Shown here: positions 19,367-29,454 of the stretch, in pieces
Layout of the letters: each line of letters starts with the position of its first letter
Numbering within the stretch: the stretch's first letter is position 1
Notes under the pieces: model-generated
Databases searched by the model: none
The model's input: the letters and a program-made list of their open reading frames with translations, nothing else
What the model was told of the DNA's origin: nothing
Program-made: the position numbers and the translations under genes
Assembly (NCBI GenBank): GCA_000004985.1
Contig: GG738895.1
From: Naegleria gruberi
Taxonomy: Eukaryota
Direction: 5' to 3' (one strand)
Length of the DNA: 64,000 nt

Positions 19367-19656
19367 GTGTTGGCAAGAAATGAAAATAATAAATTGTAAA
19401 TTTATTAATGTAGAGTTGTGAGGAACGATGTAACATTGGTATTTCGAAAAAATTGTTAACAATACTCATATTTTCAAAAAAATTACAAATGTAGACAATG
19501 ACCAAAATTCCACTTCATTTCCTGATTAATCTTATTTACAGAATCCAAAAAGTTCCAGCAAGCAAAACTCCCTTAAAATATTTCTCATCAAAAAAAAAAG
19601 AATCAACAACTCCTTGTTTTTAAATATCTTTGAAATCACACAACCAAAAGAGAATC

Positions 19657-21903
19657 ATGTCTTCTGATCATCAACAGACTCGTCATCGGGTGGGTCAACA
19701 CGTAGACGATGGTGATGATGATGAATTAATGAGTACAGATAATGGGCTATCCAATAATCATCAGCATCATCATCATCTTCAGGAAGGAGATCATCATAAT
19801 ATAATTATTAAACATAATCATCACGAACATGGCTCTGATGATGATTTGGAGTTGAAAAATCAACAGAGAAATCGCTCCGAAGAGGATTTGGGTTTGAATT
19901 ACTCGCAATCAATGAATACCTTTGATGAAAATTCGAATATGATCAATGATGAAGAAGAATCAAACGAACAAGATTCGAGTGAAAAAAGGAAGGAATCATC
20001 AACGATACCAACCACACCAGCACCTACCAATAATCATCAAAGGCAACAGTGGGGATCTCGTCTTTCCTTCATCTTGGCTACAATTGGAGCTGCTATTGGC
20101 TTTGGAAGTTTTGTTAGATTTCCATATCTTGCTTACAAGCAAGGAGGAGGTGCTTTCCTAATTCCATATACTGTTTGTTTAATTGTTTTGGGTATTCCAC
20201 TGTTAATTCTCGAGTTGAGTATGGGACAATTATTGAGGAAGAGTAGTATCAAAGCTCTCGGATTGTTGAACAATCGTATGAGAGGTTTGGGAGTTGCTGC
20301 TGTTCTATTTGGAGGATTTGGAATTTGTACTTATTATAGTGTTTTGATTTCTTGGATTTTTGTCTATTTCTATCACATGTTTGCATGGGAACTTCCTTGG
20401 AAAGGAAAAACTGAAGAATATTTCTATGATGTGATTTTGAGACGTAGTTCTGGTGATACAGTTGTGAGTGAATTGAATATTGCCATTACTGTTTCATTGT
20501 TTTTAGTGTGGGTTTCAGTTTACTGTGGTGTTTGGAAGGGAACTAGCTCAACAGGAATAATCACGTATATTACTGTTCCACTCCCAATATTATTGCTATT
20601 AATCTTGTTGATTACTAGTTTCTTTTTGGAGGGAAGTTGGACAGGAATGTACTATTTCATCAAGCCAGATTTTACAAAGATTTTGAATGTGGAAATTTGG
20701 TTAACTGCAGCTGGTCAGGTATTCTTTTCATTGAGTTTGGCCAGTGGTACCATGATTGCTCTGTCATCCTACAATGATCCAAAGCAAAATATTGTCAAAG
20801 ATGCTTGGATTATTGGTTTGTCCACTTACATTTTCAGTATTTTTGCTGGATTTTGCATGTTTGCTATTTTGGGATATATGGCCCATTCTAAGGGTGTTGA
20901 AATTGATCATATTGTTCAAGGAGGTTTGGCATTGGCCTTTGTTGTCATTCCTGAAGCTATTACCTTAATGCCAGCTTCACATGTTTTTTGCATCTTGTTC
21001 CTTGTTGCCATGTATACTCTTGCTATTGACAGCTGTTTTGGTATGATTGAAGGTGTTAATGCAGTAATTCATGATGCTTTTCCAAATCTCAAATTGCATT
21101 GGATTTCTTTAGTGACTTGTTTTTTGGGATTCATTTTTGGTATTCCATATTGTTTAGACAAGTAAGTATATTGATTTTTTTAGTTGGGTTTACTGAACTA
21201 CTTCAGTGGATACTATTTGATGGATATTGTGGACCATTACTTGAGTGATTTCTGTTTGGTATTGTCAGCTATTGGACAATGTATTGTTGTAGGATATTTG
21301 ATTTCAGACGAATCAGTAATTGCCAGAGTTAGGAAACAATGGAGAGAATACTCTTCTTCATCTTATGCCAATGTTGAAGAAGGTAATGCTACACCAATTG
21401 ATTCATCAGAGCAGCCAGCCACCAGACCTACTCCTCAATGGAAACTCAGAGTGAAAAAGTATCTTTCTCTCACTGATACCATTCTTTTCCATAGTATTGA
21501 TGAATTCAGACTTCGTATCAAGAAGGTCTGTAATTTTGGACCTCACAAAGAGTGGAGCATTTTCATCAAGTATATTGGACCAATTATTTTATTAATCTTG
21601 TTGATTATTCAGTTGGTTAAGGAAATCACCTCACCTTACTCTACAAAAGGTTCAGATTCAAAGGAATTCGACTGGCTCTCTCTCACAATTGGATTATGTA
21701 TCATATTTGGATATTTGGGTACTTTTACTATCTTTGCCATCTTCCCTCGATTGGCCACTCAAAAATCTGAAGATCCTGGAAATTCGTGGAGAGCTGTTTT
21801 GGACAAATATGAAAAGGAAGATTCTGAAAAAGAAGAAGAATCCAAAACTAATAATCTGGAGGAAGAATTACAAAATGTCGTTCCATCCACTCCTCAAGAA
21901 TAA
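19657..21903 (+). CDS. Sodium:neurotransmitter symporter family (SLC6) transporter; 2 exons (19657..21161, 21207..21903)
   Basis: WGSRLSFILATIGAAIGFGSFVRFPYLAYKQGGGAFLIPY is the hallmark SLC6 TM1 motif, and the protein is multi-TM. The first ATG is 19657 (track start 19630 is TTG). The two track ORFs are in the same frame and are joined by a 45-nt GTAAGT..CTTCAG intron with a TACTGAAC branch-like element. Confidence 0.8.
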
Positions 21904-22077: not shown

Positions 22078-23048
22078 ATGCTCAAAACCTCCAATCGTCT
22101 CTCCTCTCTTGTTTCTTGTCAAGCTTTAAAGGAAGCCATCAACAAGACAAGCAATATTAAAATTATTGACGGATCATGGCATATGCCAGCCATGAAACGT
22201 AATGGCTATGAAGAATATTTAAAAGAACACATTCCGAATGCTAGATTTTTTGATATTGATGGATTGAGTGATCAAAACACTGATTTGCCACACATGTTCC
22301 CTTCTGTTGAATTGTTTGAGAAGAGCATTACAGAAATGGGTATTGAAAATACTGATCAAATTGTTGTATATGATACTGCCTTTACTTCAGCATTCAGAGT
22401 TTGGTATACGTTTAAAGTTTTTGGACATGAAGGGAAGGTTAGCTTGTTGGATGGTGGATTAACCAAGTGGAAGCTATTGGGCTATCCTATCGAAAGTGGA
22501 AAACCAAATATTACTCCATCATCTCATCCGTACAAGGCCAAATATCAATCGGATTTTGTTGCAAGAATGGACGAAATTTTGGATAATTTGAATAATCAAA
22601 AATCATACATTGTTGGTATGTAATATTATTAGTGGAATATTAGTGAGATATGATACTATTTATTATACACTGAATAGATGCTAGATCAGCTGAAAGATTT
22701 AATGGAACTCAACCAGAACCTCGTCCAAATTTAAAGAGTGGACACATTCCAAATTCTTTCAATATTCCATTCCCAACTCTTGTCAATCCAGAAGATAAAA
22801 CTTTCAAGACAGATGAAGAGATTTTGAAATTATTCCAAAACTCTGGTTTGAACATTCAATACATTAATGATAAGATTGTAATTGACAAGCCAATTATTGG
22901 AAGTTGTGGAAGTGGTGTAACTGCTTGTGCCTTGCTCTATTCCCTTAATCTTCTTGGTGTTTCTCTTGATAAACTTCGTATTTATGATGGCTCCTTCTCG
23001 GAGTACGGAAAGGAATCATTCACCAATCCAGTTTCCCAAAGAAAATAA
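22078..23048 (+). CDS. Rhodanese/3-mercaptopyruvate sulfurtransferase (two rhodanese domains); 2 exons (22078..22615, 22678..23048)
   Basis: Domain 1 is inactive. Domain 2 carries the active-site CGSGVTA (MST-type CG[ST]GVTA). Exons are joined over a 62-nt GTATGT..AATAG intron, giving ..SYIVG|DARSAERFNG.. in frame. Confidence 0.8.
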
Positions 23049-23094: not shown

Positions 23095-25389
23095 ATGTCA
23101 TCATATACAGAGATTATTAGTGGGTTAAGTGTTAGAGCCTCCGGTGTGCATACAAACTTGGATGAAAATGGAATGGTGACTAATAAAGATCCAAAAGAAA
23201 GACTTTTAGAAGTGTGTAAGGATATTATTTCCTACTACAATTCCTACCAAGACAAGACACAAGATTTCTGCCAGAAAATTACAGCCATATTCGAATCGTT
23301 TGTTGCAGACAAGAGGTTTAATTCAATCTTCCTTGAAAAGGATGTTGCAGCTGTTTATTCCGATTGTCTGATCAATCCGAAATATGGTATCAAATTAACA
23401 GGACACGGAGGTATTTGGAAGTTGGTCAATTTTCAACATATTGTTACGAAGGAGACGACAAAACAGTTTGTGGATATTGGTCTATTGGACATGTTCAATC
23501 AACTGAATGCCACAACTGTTGATTGTACCAATACTTCCTACACTACTTCTATCATGAATATTTATCATGTTATCGGAACTCAGAAGGAATATGCTCGATT
23601 GGTTGTTAGACCAGTGATTGCCCTGATACTCAAGCTTGAAAATAGTAGTTATGAAGCTAGAAATTATATGAATTACTTGTTTAATATTGTTGGATGTGAT
23701 AGGGAAAGAATTTTTGAAGAATATGGAAAAGATCTTGAAGAGGTCAATAAGAAATTTGAAAAGAACAAGAATCAAACAATCAAGCAACTTCTCTTTGATT
23801 TATTTGGCACAAAGAATGCAGAATTTGTTTCCCTATTGATTGACTATGCAGGAACTAAGAAGAAATACTCCTTCCCTATTGATAATGAGATTGAAACTAC
23901 TGTTGAAGATGTGACACAATTCATTTTGGAGAAGTGTGTTATGGAGGATGTAGATGTGATTGAGAGTCATGAATTACAAATTTACGATATGGATATTGAG
24001 GACTATGTGGATTTTGATTTTATTGATTCGGATATTTTTGGAAAGGATGGTAATGCTGCCAAGTTCAAGTTGAACGTTACAATTGATTATGATAAAAAGA
24101 GAAAAAAGGAAGAAAAAAGAGAATCCGAGTTGAGAGAATTATCCGAGAAGAGTATATCTAGTATCAACCTTTCAGAAAAGTCGCTGGCAGACTCTGTACC
24201 ATCTTCTCACAAATTCGATAGCAGTATTGCTAGCTCAGGAATTGAAATGTCTAGTATGGAAATGTCCGCTATGAAAGATTCAGGAAATGAAATTTCTGGT
24301 ATTCCAATGTCAGGAATCCAAATGTCTGGTATTGAAATGTCTGGAATTCAAATGTCAGGCGTTGAAATGTCAGGTATTGAAATGTCTGGATTTTCGTCAT
24401 CTCACTCAATCTCAGGTCATAATGGTCCTCTTGAAATGCCATCATTTATTTCTGCTGCTGAAAATGCTCCAAAGGTAGAGCTAACCGAGAATAGTTTATT
24501 AGGTGGCAGCTTTGAGATTCCAGATTCATTCAAAGAACCAGTTGTCACATCTCAAAAGGACAAAAAGACCAAAAAGATTGTTAATGAAACATATCAAATA
24601 TTGGATAAGATTGAATCTAATGAATCAATGATTGATAGAAAGGTTTATATTGCAAAGGATTTGGCCAACAAATCTGGTCCAAATATTGTAATCAAATATT
24701 TACCAATCAAATCAACCACCGAATTCAACAGATGTATGAAGGAAGGAGTAAATATGATTCGTATGGGAAGAACTATTCAACAAAAGAAGATTCCACTCGC
24801 AAACATATTCGATGTCTTTGAAGAAGAAGACAAGGAGAAGAATAAGGCATCCATCAGATTCCTTTGTTTTGCCATGCCTTACTATGGATCTGGAAATTTG
24901 CAAACCTATTTGGAATCAAAGAATCAACCATCCTTGGATTGGAATTTCATCTACTCTCTATTCAAGCAAATTGTTAATGGTTTGGTGTATTTGCATGAAC
25001 AAAATATTGCTCACAAGAATCTCAAACTCTCCAATGTTTTCTTTGTGGATGAGGATAAAATCGTACTGACAGATTATGGACTAAATAGTGACATTTCATC
25101 ACAAGTACCAGAACACAATTCTCTGAGCAATGTGGAAAATATTCCAATTGAGAAATTCCAAAAGGCAGATATCTATCAAGCCGGGTTAATATTTGCCTCC
25201 CTGTGTTTGCTCCTGAATGGTAACACGGTGAGTAATTTGACTACGATTTTGAAGGAAGGAGAAAGCTCATTAAGAAATTCTCTTGGTAAAATCCCAGAAA
25301 AAGCAAAGGACATGGCTGTCAAATTATTGACTCAAGATCCAAATGAAAGACCATCCATTCAGCAAGTTGTCAATTTGTTGGATATCTAG
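23095..25389 (+). CDS. Predicted pseudokinase with N-terminal unknown domain and internal MSGIE pentapeptide repeats
   Basis: The C-terminal kinase-like fold has VIKY (retains the VAIK lysine), HKNLKLSN in place of HRDLKPxN (catalytic Asp lost), DYG in place of DFG, subdomain XI DPNERPS, and no Gly-rich loop. About 8 tandem 15-nt repeats encode M-S-G-I-E/Q (about 24237-24400). The first ATG is 23095 (track start 22927 overlaps the upstream gene). Confidence 0.6.
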   Translation: MSSYTEIISGLSVRASGVHTNLDENGMVTNKDPKERLLEVCKDIISYYNSYQDKTQDFCQKITAIFESFVADKRFNSIFLEKDVAAVYSDCLINPKYGIKLTGHGGIWKLVNFQHIVTKETTKQFVDIGLLDMFNQLNATTVDCTNTSYTTSIMNIYHVIGTQKEYARLVVRPVIALILKLENSSYEARNYMNYLFNIVGCDRERIFEEYGKDLEEVNKKFEKNKNQTIKQLLFDLFGTKNAEFVSLLIDYAGTKKKYSFPIDNEIETTVEDVTQFILEKCVMEDVDVIESHELQIYDMDIEDYVDFDFIDSDIFGKDGNAAKFKLNVTIDYDKKRKKEEKRESELRELSEKSISSINLSEKSLADSVPSSHKFDSSIASSGIEMSSMEMSAMKDSGNEISGIPMSGIQMSGIEMSGIQMSGVEMSGIEMSGFSSSHSISGHNGPLEMPSFISAAENAPKVELTENSLLGGSFEIPDSFKEPVVTSQKDKKTKKIVNETYQILDKIESNESMIDRKVYIAKDLANKSGPNIVIKYLPIKSTTEFNRCMKEGVNMIRMGRTIQQKKIPLANIFDVFEEEDKEKNKASIRFLCFAMPYYGSGNLQTYLESKNQPSLDWNFIYSLFKQIVNGLVYLHEQNIAHKNLKLSNVFFVDEDKIVLTDYGLNSDISSQVPEHNSLSNVENIPIEKFQKADIYQAGLIFASLCLLLNGNTVSNLTTILKEGESSLRNSLGKIPEKAKDMAVKLLTQDPNERPSIQQVVNLLDI

Positions 25390-25445: not shown

Positions 25446-26779
25446 CTAATTGTTTTTTATAGAAGAGTAACACTCGGTCGTGTAATATAGTTGATCTATA
25501 GCCTCACTAAATCCTCTTTCTTCAAAGCCTTCCCCTACAATCCAGTGAACATAAGCTCTCTTGCTATACATCTTATCAAATTGTAGAGCAAGGTTATTAA
25601 GATAACTTGTTATTGAACTGGTATTGTTGGCAATGTGCATTACATTTTTAAAATGGAAAGAGGTTGGATGAATATTTACAGGTGCCTTTCTTGATATTTG
25701 ATATTGAGCTTGTTCATTGTTGTAAGTTTTGAGTACTTTCGAAAGAGAATCAGTATGATGATGTGAAAAATCTCCTCTCATTGATGTGTTCATTGCTATG
25801 GAAACTCCATCAGCCTTATTAACACTATTCAAAGAGGATTTTTTTGAAAAGAGATCCTTAATATTGAATTCAGTACTGGATGTATCTTGCAAGTTTACAA
25901 AACTATTAGATATTATATTAGTTTCGGCTGTTACACCCAAATAATCAATGACATTATTTAAACTTCCTTCATTTGAGAATCTAATCTGAGATGTTAATGT
26001 TGAAATACTTTGTGAAATTAAATGATTCATGTCCTTGAAATTAGGATTCTCAATTCCACACTCCACACAAGCATCCAATAGTGAACAATTATCAAATGCA
26101 AATATACATTTCATTCTATCATAAATATAATTCAAGCCAATAACTGAATTGTAAGTATCCAACATTGAAGTAGAATAAGTTGCACCTGGAAAAACAGTAA
26201 AGGTTGACTCGAAACATTATCTCAATATTCAACATGAAACTCTCACAAACCTACCATTGGTAATTTAAATTCATTTGCCAAACCCCAGACAATACGAGAG
26301 GTTGATCCAGATCCAGTTCCTCCACCAAGTGCTTGAGTAATCAATATACTCTCCACTGAATCACATCGTTCCAGCATTTTCCTAACTCTCTCCTCAATAT
26401 AATTAATTTCACAAGATGACATTGAAAAATAGCCTTTACCAAAGTTTGAGGCAGCATCTTCATTACCACATATTATATTTTCCTCCTTAAATTGAACATG
26501 CAATTGATGATCATTATGCAATGAACTTTGTAGTTGTTGGGGATCGGAATCAAAGAATAAACATCGAGGATGATAGACATTCTCCACTCTAATGGATTCA
26601 TCATATAAACATGATAGATTATTAATTTGTGGATCATTGTGGATATTGCTATTTTCTAAAAGTGAATTAGTGTTGTTGTTGTTGGATTGTAATCCGTGTT
26701 CATCGGCAAATAATTGCCAGAGATCAGTGCCGATCTGAGTTCCGCAATTACCAATATGCAAAAATATCAATTCTTTCAT
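25446..26779 (-). CDS. Divergent tubulin-family protein; 2 exons (about 26252..26779, 25446..26186)
   Basis: The N-terminus MKELIFLHIGNCGTQIGTDLWQLFADEHGL parallels the tubulin MREIVHIQAGQCGNQIG..FWEVISDEHG. It has the GGGTGSG nucleotide-binding signature and the C-terminal KRAYVHWIVGEGFEERGFSEA (compare KAFVHWYVGEGMEE.EFSEA). The two ORFs are joined by a 65-nt GTTTGT..TTCCAG intron. Coordinates here are ±1; the displayed sequence and the ORF track disagree by 1 nt locally. Confidence 0.75.
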
Positions 26780-26920
26780 TTTTTTTTTAAATATTAAATA
26801 TTTTAAATACAATAATTGTAATGTCCTTAATATTTAAAGATGTATTTTGTCAAGTGTTGAAGTTCTCTTGAACTTTGATCTTTAAATAGATTTTGAAAAA
26901 AACAATTTTCAAAAAAAAAA

Positions 26921-27832
26921 ATGATTCAATTCTTGGATCCAAATGTTGTGCAATTTGAAATTTTACCTCATCTCGATGATCGATCCGTTATTTCACTCCT
27001 ATCGACATGTAAAATTGTCAATCAGGTAATTTCTATTCCGGACTATATCGAAACAAAATTGAAAATAATGGATGAAGAAATTTTGAGTCAGAAATTCAAT
27101 GAGTTGGAACAAAGTCCAATCCAAGTGAATAGAATTAATGAAATATTTAGATTAGCATATTTGAATTTTAGAGAAGGAATGTTTCAAACTGAAAAGCAAT
27201 TGTTAGGAACAGTTAAAGTGGATGAGGCACAATGTTATGGAAAATTGAAATCTCAATATACTCTTTTGCAGAGATATGTTTTCAAGAATTCCGACAAATT
27301 ATCACCACACTGTAATAGGAGTGTTTTTTCAGGTTCAACAGGATTTTGGAATTCTCATAGTGTTGATTTTAAAATCTCAAAAGAGAATACTGTATATTAT
27401 TGGTCCATTGTCCTTACAGCATTTGATCGTAAGATATCAAATAGCTGGGCAATACTTGTAGGTTTTGCTGAAGAGGATGCTGCCTCATCATTATCTAAAA
27501 GCTGGATTCCATCTGGATATTGTGTCAAATCAAATGCAATACTTGAAAATAGTTATACATCATACACAGAGAGCCTTGTGAATACGGAAGGAGATGTCAT
27601 TGGAATTGAGTGCTATGTCCAAAACAAAACAGTCTATTTCAATGTTTACTCTCCTTCGAGGAACCATCAGACCTTTCAATTCAAATCTGTGAATAGTAAT
27701 ATAGTACCAATGGTATCTATGGTACACTCTCAATCACTCCAATTACTTTCATTACTTCCGTGGGATGGGCATGTGGAAAGCTTGAAATCCTTTGGAGAAT
27801 GTGCAACAAGGATTTGTACAGCAGAAGAATGA
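26921..27832 (+). CDS. F-box / SPRY(B30.2)-domain protein (module gene A)
   Basis: The N-terminal F-box-like motif is VVQFEILPHLDDRSVISLLSTCKIVNQVI. The C-terminal SPRY-like pattern is WSIVL...WAILVGFAEED...GYCVKSN...GDVIGIECYVQNKTVYFNV. About 90% identical to the minus-strand copy at 52502..53413. Confidence 0.7.
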   Translation: MIQFLDPNVVQFEILPHLDDRSVISLLSTCKIVNQVISIPDYIETKLKIMDEEILSQKFNELEQSPIQVNRINEIFRLAYLNFREGMFQTEKQLLGTVKVDEAQCYGKLKSQYTLLQRYVFKNSDKLSPHCNRSVFSGSTGFWNSHSVDFKISKENTVYYWSIVLTAFDRKISNSWAILVGFAEEDAASSLSKSWIPSGYCVKSNAILENSYTSYTESLVNTEGDVIGIECYVQNKTVYFNVYSPSRNHQTFQFKSVNSNIVPMVSMVHSQSLQLLSLLPWDGHVESLKSFGECATRICTAEE

Positions 27833-27966: not shown

Positions 27967-29454
27967 ATGGGAAATAACAAGAGCAGAAATCCAACTCCCA
28001 TTCCACCACCATCTTTCGAATTAGATTTCCGAACCATCAAGGAAATTAATCAGGAAAAATTTGTGTTGCATCCAGATTTAACATTCGAAATGGCAACAAA
28101 TTATTTGGAAATTGGTGAAATTTTACAATTGGCATTGTCATGTAAATTATTGTACTCGTATTTGTGGTTTGATCAGGAAAAATTGTGGAACGCAGTGGCA
28201 AGGAGAGATGGCTTTACGATTCGACAGCACGAATGTAAACAACTTTATCGTACGTTGAGGAAGAAGGAGATTAGTTTATTGGAAAATCCAAAATTTAGTT
28301 TGGTTTCTCTCTTTTGGAAACCAGAATTTGTTGCTGAATTTGGGAATATTGAATTGAATCAATTAATTTACATATTAAGAAATCCACATTTTCACATAAT
28401 GGTTAAAGCCAATTTGATTGAATTTTCATTGAAACAATTCATCACTAGTGAGAATTACAAAAAATTGAAGAATCTTTTATATTCAATGTGTAGGATTGAA
28501 AATGGAACAAACATTATATTACCAGATGGTTATTTAGAGAGACCTCCATCTAAAATAACTCTCCTTTCATTATTATGTAAACATTTATTCGAAATACCAG
28601 GTGCTGATGATATTATTATAAGATTTGCACCTTTTGGATTGGTATCTGAGGAAGTGAACAAGTATTCCTCTGTCTTTACATTTGAAAAGAGAATCATTTT
28701 AATATTATTAGAAAAGTGCAAAAGAAAGGAACCTAATTTGGATCAATACTTTACAATATTCACTCAAATATTCGAGAAGAAATTACATTTACTGGAAAAT
28801 TTCTATCAATTCAAAGACTTATTGGACTCATTTCAAACACTGGACATTGAAAAAATTACTCCTACCTTAATCCATTTACTTTCCAGTAATGAGAAATTAT
28901 TTCCAGGAGCTACCTTGCTTGATCTACATGTTTATCATCCAAAAATTGTTGCAGAAATATCAAAGCTGTCTCATTTACCTTGCAATCACTCAATGAACTA
29001 CATTCTAAAGTATTTAGATAACAGTACATTTTCATCTCAAGAACAACTTGCTATACCTCTTGATTCTCTTTTTCAAATATGGGGAAAATATGGTAAAATG
29101 ATTTCTCAATATTATCTAAGAAGGATTTGTGAATTGGATTTTGAAAGAACTGTGAATCAAATATTGGAATGTGAGCCCGTGTCTTTCTGTTCTTTTGACT
29201 GGGATAATCAGCGTTACCAATTTCAGTATTTGTTTTTCTTGAAACAACTGGAAAACCATGTCAAGACTCTTGATTCTTCTGAATATGGATTATTCTTTCA
29301 GAAACTGAAAAAGGTATCAGAAACCATCCATCAGAACAGCAAAGGAGAGGGATACACGAAAATACTGAATTCTATTCTCTTTGAGATTGAGCGGTTTGCA
29401 TCCCAGTATCCATTCAGTAACTCTTTGAAAAAAGCAATTGAACGAGATTTTTAA
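27967..29454 (+). CDS. Hypothetical protein with N-myristoylation signal (MGNNKS) and F-box-like motif
   Basis: ATG at 27967. Gly2 with Ser6 fits the myristoylation consensus. LHPDLTFEMATNYLEIGEILQLALSCKLLYSYLW is F-box-like. 495 aa, no other recognised domain. Confidence 0.5.
   Translation: MGNNKSRNPTPIPPPSFELDFRTIKEINQEKFVLHPDLTFEMATNYLEIGEILQLALSCKLLYSYLWFDQEKLWNAVARRDGFTIRQHECKQLYRTLRKKEISLLENPKFSLVSLFWKPEFVAEFGNIELNQLIYILRNPHFHIMVKANLIEFSLKQFITSENYKKLKNLLYSMCRIENGTNIILPDGYLERPPSKITLLSLLCKHLFEIPGADDIIIRFAPFGLVSEEVNKYSSVFTFEKRIILILLEKCKRKEPNLDQYFTIFTQIFEKKLHLLENFYQFKDLLDSFQTLDIEKITPTLIHLLSSNEKLFPGATLLDLHVYHPKIVAEISKLSHLPCNHSMNYILKYLDNSTFSSQEQLAIPLDSLFQIWGKYGKMISQYYLRRICELDFERTVNQILECEPVSFCSFDWDNQRYQFQYLFFLKQLENHVKTLDSSEYGLFFQKLKKVSETIHQNSKGEGYTKILNSILFEIERFASQYPFSNSLKKAIERDF

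Follow-up and report, generated by a model that had tools for sequence, protein, structure and literature searches.

A predicted pseudokinase with an internal pentapeptide repeat array, confined to Naegleria

The gene NAEGRDRAFT_72132 lies within a 64-kb window of Naegleria gruberi nuclear DNA (64,000 nt of contig GG738895.1, G+C content about 33%; "the window" hereafter means this whole stretch) and encodes a protein with a predicted solenoid-containing N-terminal region, a Ser-rich linker carrying tandem five-residue repeats, and a C-terminal protein-kinase-like domain that has Asn in place of the catalytic Asp. The locus is a real, conserved single-exon gene under purifying selection, its catalytic residues have truly been lost, with no error of gene model or sequencing to account for their absence, and the family to which it belongs is uncharacterised and confined to Naegleria. 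We lean towards the view that the product is a functional pseudokinase peculiar to Naegleria, with the role of a non-catalytic scaffold or allosteric partner and not that of a phosphotransferase, while keeping in mind that "pseudokinase" is a prediction from sequence and that residual or atypical activity is possible.

The gene and its kinase-like domain

The plus-strand open reading frame (ORF) comprises 764 codons with no internal stop, and its product matches the "predicted protein" XP_002672745 of N. gruberi (NAEGRDRAFT_72132; D2VT09) with 100% identity. The public model (738 aa) starts at the second in-frame ATG (M27, nt 23173), 26 codons downstream of the ATG at 23095. The upstream ATG comes after an A-rich run, and the N-termini of the orthologues are longer and align weakly with these 26 residues. 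Three orthologues were found, C9374_006462 of N. lovaniensis (827 aa), FDP41_004732 of N. fowleri (834 aa) and a 774-aa protein encoded on a JGI metagenome contig with a G+C content of 39.6%; all three show about 40% identity to their N. gruberi counterpart, and the four proteins are collinear over their full length. An exact-match look-up, a method blind to variants, located the identical N. fowleri protein on three contigs. Scanning of metagenome contigs with the full alignment returned one weak, generic kinase match and no new family member. The initial annotation of this DNA, made from the letters alone, had allowed that a better gene model might contain exons supplying the HRD and Gly-loop residues. 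The ORF is instead continuous, and a single unbroken ORF makes up the gene in N. fowleri, in N. lovaniensis and, as called, on the metagenome contig. Since these orthologues share HKN, DYG and the loop without glycine, no missing exon can account for the degenerate motifs.

A Pfam search matched residues 527–760 to positions 23–259 of the 263-position Pkinase profile (PF00069) with 67.9 bits and an E value of 1.2e-18, well above the cut-off of 31.7 bits, and 804 kinase chains in the PDB were matched at E<0.01. In alignments with PKR and PKA, the stretch HKNLKLSN corresponds to HRDLKPSN of PKR and YRDLKPEN of PKA, so that the catalytic Asp is replaced by Asn642, a residue that is invariant in the four orthologous proteins. 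The predicted β1–β2 loop, which in the AlphaFold2 (AF2) model is flanked by strands at residues 500–506 (β1) and 516–522 (β2), contains no glycine in any of the four. The initial annotation had described a kinase-like domain lacking the catalytic Asp and the Gly loop but retaining the β3 Lys and subdomain XI, and this description was borne out at each point: the putative β3 Lys, K534, is invariant, and so is R752 of subdomain XI. To this can be added that the catalytic-loop Asn, the DFG Asp and the subdomain IX Asp (D692) are also retained. Under the definition of a pseudokinase as a domain missing at least one of the β3 Lys, the HRD Asp and the DFG Asp, it is the HRD Asp that is absent. K534 was assigned as the β3 Lys because of the ungapped offset of the Pfam alignment and the positions at which PDB alignments begin (residue 532 for GCN2 and NEK1, residue 516 for CDK6); the segment KVYIAKDLANKSGPNIVIK also agrees with the corresponding stretch of CDK6, KVFKARDLKNGGRFVALK.

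Among solved structures the best sequence matches came from the PEK group (PKR, GCN2 and PERK). PKR was the best solved relative both with the single sequence (5.6e-16) and with the four-orthologue profile (2.5e-22); in the profile search the JH2 domains of TYK2 (3e-17) and JAK1 ranked just under it, and GCN2 (5e-17 and 5e-15) and PERK (8e-13) were also matched. By sequence, the kinase-like domain thus appears nearest to the eIF2α-kinase (PEK) group. On the family placement that the initial annotation had proposed as a check, PKR stands at the top and GCN2 and PERK fall within the top 15, but TYK2/JAK1 JH2, CDPKs, STK33 and NEK1 are interleaved with them. PKR shares the catalytic-loop context LKxSN(V/I)FF with the Naegleria protein, and the end of the PKR insert between β4 and β5, an insert characteristic of the PEK family, aligns with the short charged segment EEEDKEKNKAS (only about 10 aa) that precedes β5. 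PEK kinases differ from the Naegleria protein in that the latter has Asn for the catalytic Asp, no Gly-rich loop and an N-lobe that is unrecognisable alone. The dsRNA-binding, RWD, HisRS-like and luminal sensor domains of PEK kinases are likewise absent, and in their place are an armadillo (ARM)-like solenoid, a β-grasp-like module and a repeat linker. PEK kinases have a catalytically competent domain that phosphorylates Ser51 of eIF2α; the Naegleria domain has neither the catalytic Asp nor the Gly loop, and no evidence ties the protein to eIF2α.

The same Asp-to-Asn change is found in HER3/ErbB3 (HRN) and in the JH2 domains of JAK/TYK2 (HGN), which also keep the β3 Lys, the catalytic Asn and the DFG Asp and which serve as allosteric regulators of an active kinase partner. 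These differ in being metazoan tyrosine-kinase-like domains with no common architecture or orthology to the Naegleria protein, which has lost the glycine loop in addition. By analogy, the Naegleria domain would still fold and may bind nucleotide and metal as HER3 and JAK JH2 do, with poor or no phosphate transfer.

To see where constraint lies, ratios of non-synonymous to synonymous substitution rates (dN/dS) were taken from the comparison of N. fowleri with N. lovaniensis. The ratio was 0.19 for the whole gene, 0.16 for the kinase-like domain and 0.026 for the β-grasp-like module, which is the most constrained domain between these two species (97% amino acid identity) and in which 41% of columns are invariant in the four species. 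The most invariant stretch of the entire protein is residues 541–580, the predicted αC–β4 segment, where 75–80% of positions are identical in the four species; conservation is lower in the catalytic and activation loops. The αC–β4 face often serves established kinases and pseudokinases as a regulatory or dimerisation surface, and known pseudokinases, like the dimerising PEK kinases, pair with kinase partners. In the Naegleria protein the αC–β4 face is probably a protein–protein interface, used for example to pair with an active kinase.

The most probable alternative, although we consider it unlikely, is an atypical yet active kinase in which N642, K644, N647, D660 and K534 support low-level or non-canonical catalysis, such as autophosphorylation of its own Ser-rich linker in the manner of HER3 and JAK2 JH2, or a different nucleotide-dependent chemistry. 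The invariance of the β3 Lys, the catalytic-loop Lys and Asn and the DFG Asp in the four orthologues points to continued binding of nucleotide and metal; the kinase-like domain also evolves under purifying selection, and a Ser-rich array lies directly upstream of it. Against this, every orthologue has Asn as its catalytic base and a phosphate-anchoring Gly loop devoid of glycine. Conservation is highest at αC–β4 rather than in the catalytic or activation loop, and the greater part of the activation segment is poorly conserved.

Several considerations weigh against our preferred interpretation, that of a non-catalytic scaffold or allosteric partner. The Asp-to-Asn pseudokinases HER3 and JAK2 JH2 keep weak activity, and the Naegleria domain may do so too. 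The nearness to the PEK group is an E-value ranking and not a phylogeny. The N-lobe is highly divergent, and on its own it matched no kinase in the PDB. An hhalign comparison with PKA put STTEFNRCM on the Gly loop; this placement was rejected because it leaves no room for αC and conflicts with Pfam, phmmer and AF2. Given the divergent N-lobe and this discordant alignment, the β3-Lys and αC-Glu assignments rest on Pfam and phmmer offsets together with a low-confidence AF2 model. All structure predictions were built on four sequences, which is why confidence is low over the kinase-like domain (predicted local distance difference test, pLDDT, mostly 25–77). Finally, a literature search by gene identifiers found no mention of the gene or its orthologues in any paper.

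The pentapeptide array and the disordered linker

Between the N-terminal region and the kinase-like domain lies a linker of which 23% of residues are Ser. AF2 assigned no secondary structure to residues 353–499 (pLDDT about 25), a region that is thus predicted to be disordered, and the orthologue alignment reveals conserved islands within it, such as G444, L446, M448, S450 and S453. Tandem Repeats Finder (TRF) detected the array in this linker as a period of 15 nt at 24235–24390 (10.4 copies, 70% matches, score 121), with super-periods of 30 and 45 nt scoring 136 and 156. Read in frame, the units are SGIEM, SSMEM, SAMKD, SGNEI, SGIPM, SGIQM, SGIEM, SGIQM, SGVEM, SGIEM and SGFSS. The initial annotation had counted about eight tandem 15-nt repeats encoding MSGIE or MSGIQ at about 24237–24400, which is right to within one unit: seven of the 11 units fit the strict pattern SG[IVLMF]xM. 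Elsewhere in the window this pattern occurs only twice in all six frames.

No two adjacent units are identical in nucleotides. The six core units differ at 24 codons synonymously and at 16 non-synonymously; the synonymous variants are TCA/TCT, GGA/GGT/GGC and ATT/ATC, and the amino acid replacements among units fall mainly at the fourth position (E/Q/P). Since the differences between units are mostly synonymous and no neighbours are identical, the array must be old. An array of the same motif is present at the same place in every orthologue, with seven, five, four and three strict units over the four proteins, and the N. fowleri and N. lovaniensis arrays contain an 18-aa insertion as well as seven-residue units. 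Residues of the array that are invariant among the four orthologues include S416, G417, I418, M420, S421 and G422. The dN/dS ratio of the array is 0.10, and that of both the ARM domain and the linker after the array is 0.30. The conservation, the synonymous excess and the low dN/dS together indicate an old, selected peptide motif array and not recent slippage. In our reading, selection maintains the motif itself, and the number of copies drifts from one species to another.

This evidence bears directly on a second alternative, namely that the repeat is a neutral slippage expansion tolerated in a linker and that only the folded domains matter. The variation in copy number and layout, including the insertion shared by N. 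fowleri and N. lovaniensis, and the predicted disorder of the region are what such an expansion would give, but the motif has kept its position in four species whose proteins are only about 40% identical overall, several of its residues are invariant, the array is old, and its dN/dS is below the values for both the ARM domain and the neighbouring linker. We therefore regard neutral expansion as distinctly unlikely. In our preferred interpretation, the Ser-Gly array would serve as a multivalent short-linear-motif or multi-site phosphorylation module, phospho-regulated and placed in a disordered linker.

The array also contains a DSGxxxS motif, DSGNEIS, whose counterpart at the aligned position is DSGIQLS in N. 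fowleri and N. lovaniensis; the metagenome orthologue does not have it. We take this motif to resemble a β-TrCP-type phosphodegron. In a more far-reaching reading, which we hold to be quite improbable as a whole, a PEK-derived pseudokinase would steer stress signalling or cell cycle and differentiation in Naegleria, the pathogen N. fowleri included, by pairing with an active kinase through its invariant αC–β4 face. The SG[IV]xM array, analogous to MELT arrays or to DSGxxxS degrons, would then be a multivalent docking motif of a kind not described before, which a WD40-type partner reads in its phosphorylated state. Should that be so, it would represent a new class of short linear motif on a new pseudokinase family.

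We consider it very improbable that the array is specifically a MELT-like phospho-docking array, read as [IVLM]-[ED]-M-S, which recruits a Bub3-type or other phospho-reader to a checkpoint- or kinetochore-type scaffold. The MELT arrays of KNL1 are alike in consisting of tandem short motifs with a phosphorylatable residue in a disordered region, and the order of solenoid, disordered region and C-terminal (pseudo)kinase recalls Mps1, Bub1 and BubR1. Five matches to [MILV][ED][MILV][ST] are found in the N. gruberi array and several others in each orthologous protein; the whole N. gruberi protein contains six, compared with 1.1 expected from shuffled sequences, although shuffles reached up to seven. 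KNL1 units, however, span tens of residues. Those of Naegleria measure only 5 aa and are flanked by neither T-omega nor SHT motifs, their acidic residue may give way to Q, P, A or V, and the acceptor is Ser and not Thr. KNL1 further has RWD and coiled-coil domains, whereas the C-terminal part of the Naegleria protein has only the kinase domain by Pfam. Neither a KEN box nor a SILK motif was found, and the orthologues share no RVxF-like match at corresponding alignment positions; chains of Bub1 and Mps1 are absent from the 60 best PDB matches, where PKR and GCN2 appear instead. KNL1 MELT arrays, like the present array, keep their motif while copy number turns over quickly (PMC4558858), but a separate KNL1 orthologue has been reported in N. 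gruberi (PMC4558858). Membership of the KNL1 family was itself rejected, as the protein lacks SILK and a conserved RVxF-like motif, has a kinase domain and not an RWD domain, and shows only a loose four-residue pattern.

That the units fold as a short right-handed quadrilateral β-helix, making the array a rigid spacer, is extremely improbable: the period is strictly five residues and IEMSG resembles the A(D/N)LSG consensus of bacterial pentapeptide-repeat proteins, with hydrophobic residues at i and i-2 followed by Ser-Gly, but no Pfam pentapeptide family (PF00805 and relatives) was matched even at E values up to 10, AF2 gives no strands (pLDDT about 25), at most about 2.5 coils could form, and the insertions and seven-residue units of the orthologues would break the register.

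The N-terminal region and the overall architecture

The initial annotation had called the N-terminal 330 residues an unrecognised domain. At the level of sequence this stands: no Pfam family matches residues 1–337, and a profile of these residues searched against 1.84 billion representative proteins retrieved only the Naegleria orthologues, apart from one spurious match (P0005, E 2.5e-7), which was rejected as a translated satellite-like repeat. At the level of predicted fold it does not, as AF2 run on the N-terminal alignment (mean pLDDT 73, predicted template-modelling score 0.58) suggests an ARM/HEAT-like solenoid followed by a β-grasp-like module. Residues 33–237 are modelled as all-helical with a pLDDT of 75–93, and Foldseek comparison with the PDB gave armadillo matches only, which were weak (E about 0.01). 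Residues 242–330 are modelled as strand, strand, helix, strand, strand, short helix and strand with a pLDDT of 50–74, and this module had no match in Pfam or, by profile search, in the PDB. In our preferred interpretation the solenoid and the β-grasp-like module would recruit partners.

A (pseudo)kinase fold combined with ARM/HEAT-type scaffold repeats likewise occurs in ULK4, SCYL1–3 and STK36/Fused, and in trans in STRAD with MO25; MO25 and an axonemal kinase-plus-solenoid chain (9fqr_Xr) were among the fold or sequence matches. ULK4, SCYL and STK36 differ, however, in having the kinase-like domain N-terminal and the solenoid C-terminal, in lacking a pentapeptide array and in showing no sequence similarity in the solenoid. 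Pseudokinases are a familiar class, and protist kinomes often include lineage-specific examples, so the present family brings no conceptual change; it is an uncharacterised, genus-restricted family of probable signalling scaffolds and not a new kind of system. Its value is descriptive, in that an undescribed family of predicted pseudokinases combines, in an unusual architecture, an ARM-like solenoid, an extremely constrained orphan β-grasp-like module, an SG[IV]xM array and a PKR-like kinase domain that is probably dead, and is conserved in the brain-eating amoeba N. fowleri with no detectable relative elsewhere. If the repeat were used for phospho-docking, or if the domain partnered an eIF2α kinase allosterically, the family would offer a tractable entry to Naegleria-specific signalling, and in either case a possible parasite-specific target. 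The positions of all features are given in Table 1.

Table 1. Features of NAEGRDRAFT_72132 and its product, with nucleotide positions in the window
Feature	Residues (aa)	Position (nt)	Strand	Basis or remark
Complete single-exon coding sequence, NAEGRDRAFT_72132	764 aa plus stop	23095..25389	+	collinear with three orthologues
Predicted ARM/HEAT-like α-solenoid, about 12 helices	33-237	23191..23805	+	
Predicted β-grasp-like module	242-330	23818..24084	+	AF2 secondary structure
Lys/Glu-rich predicted helix, KKRKKEEKRESELRELSEK	332-352	24088..24150	+	AF2 secondary structure
Ser-rich linker holding the array and further short conserved motifs	353-494	24151..24576	+	AF2, composition
Tandem 15-nt/5-aa repeat array, 11 in-register units	381-435	24235..24399	+	TRF, in-frame decomposition; present in all orthologues
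DSGNEIS (DSGxxxS motif inside the array)	395-401	24277..24297	+	
Clean array core, six SGI/VxM units		24295-24384	+	
Protein-kinase-like (predicted pseudokinase) domain, 270 aa	495-764	24577..25386	+	
Degenerate "Gly-rich" loop, IESNESMIDR	506-515	24610..24639	+	AF2 strands, orthologue alignment
Putative β3 (VAIK-type) Lys, within VIKY	K534	24694..24696	+	invariant in four orthologues; residue mapping inferred
Predicted αC helix to β4, TTEFNRCMKEGVNMIRMGRTIQQKKIPLANIFDVFEEEDK	541-580	24715..24834	+	includes candidate αC Glu E550
HKN replacing HRD; K644 and N647 of the catalytic loop retained	H640-K641-N642	25012..25020	+	PKR/PKA alignments
DFG equivalent (DYG), metal-binding Asp kept	D660-Y661-G662	25072..25080	+	alignments; invariant in four orthologues
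ERP carrying the invariant subdomain XI Arg	E751-R752-P753	25345..25353	+	PKA alignment, orthologues

Neighbouring genes

Directly upstream of the pseudokinase gene lies a rhodanese-domain gene (22078-23048, plus strand; Pfam E 5e-11) that seems to contain a GT..AG intron (about 62 nt, near 22616-22677) and ends in a stop codon, at 23046-23048, only 46 nt ahead of the pseudokinase ATG. Further upstream, a sodium:neurotransmitter symporter gene (SNF family, Pfam E 4e-95; 19630-21903, plus strand) seemingly spans the ORFs 19630-21165 and 21184-21903, and its running over two adjacent ORFs suggests a very short intron or a frame break. Just downstream, on the minus strand, is a divergent tubulin-family gene (25446-26812), apparently split by a short intron into the ORFs 26243-26812 and 25446-26165. 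Its N-terminal part matches Pfam Tubulin (E 2.3e-31). For the C-terminal part no Pfam family was matched at E 0.001, so that the gene appears to be a tubulin paralogue of unusual divergence. In N. fowleri and N. lovaniensis (L003, 7839-10165, and L005, 7820-10010), an Aha1-domain gene and a mitochondrial carrier gene come after the orthologue of the pseudokinase gene. The N. gruberi gene is flanked differently, by the rhodanese and tubulin genes, so that gene order around the locus has not been kept within Naegleria. Beyond the tubulin-family gene, the plus-strand ORFs 26921-27832 and 27967-29454 have N-termini that look F-box-like by eye. The latter had no Pfam match, and the former gave a sub-threshold match to SPRY (E 3e-4, 21.2 bits, cut-off 26.3).

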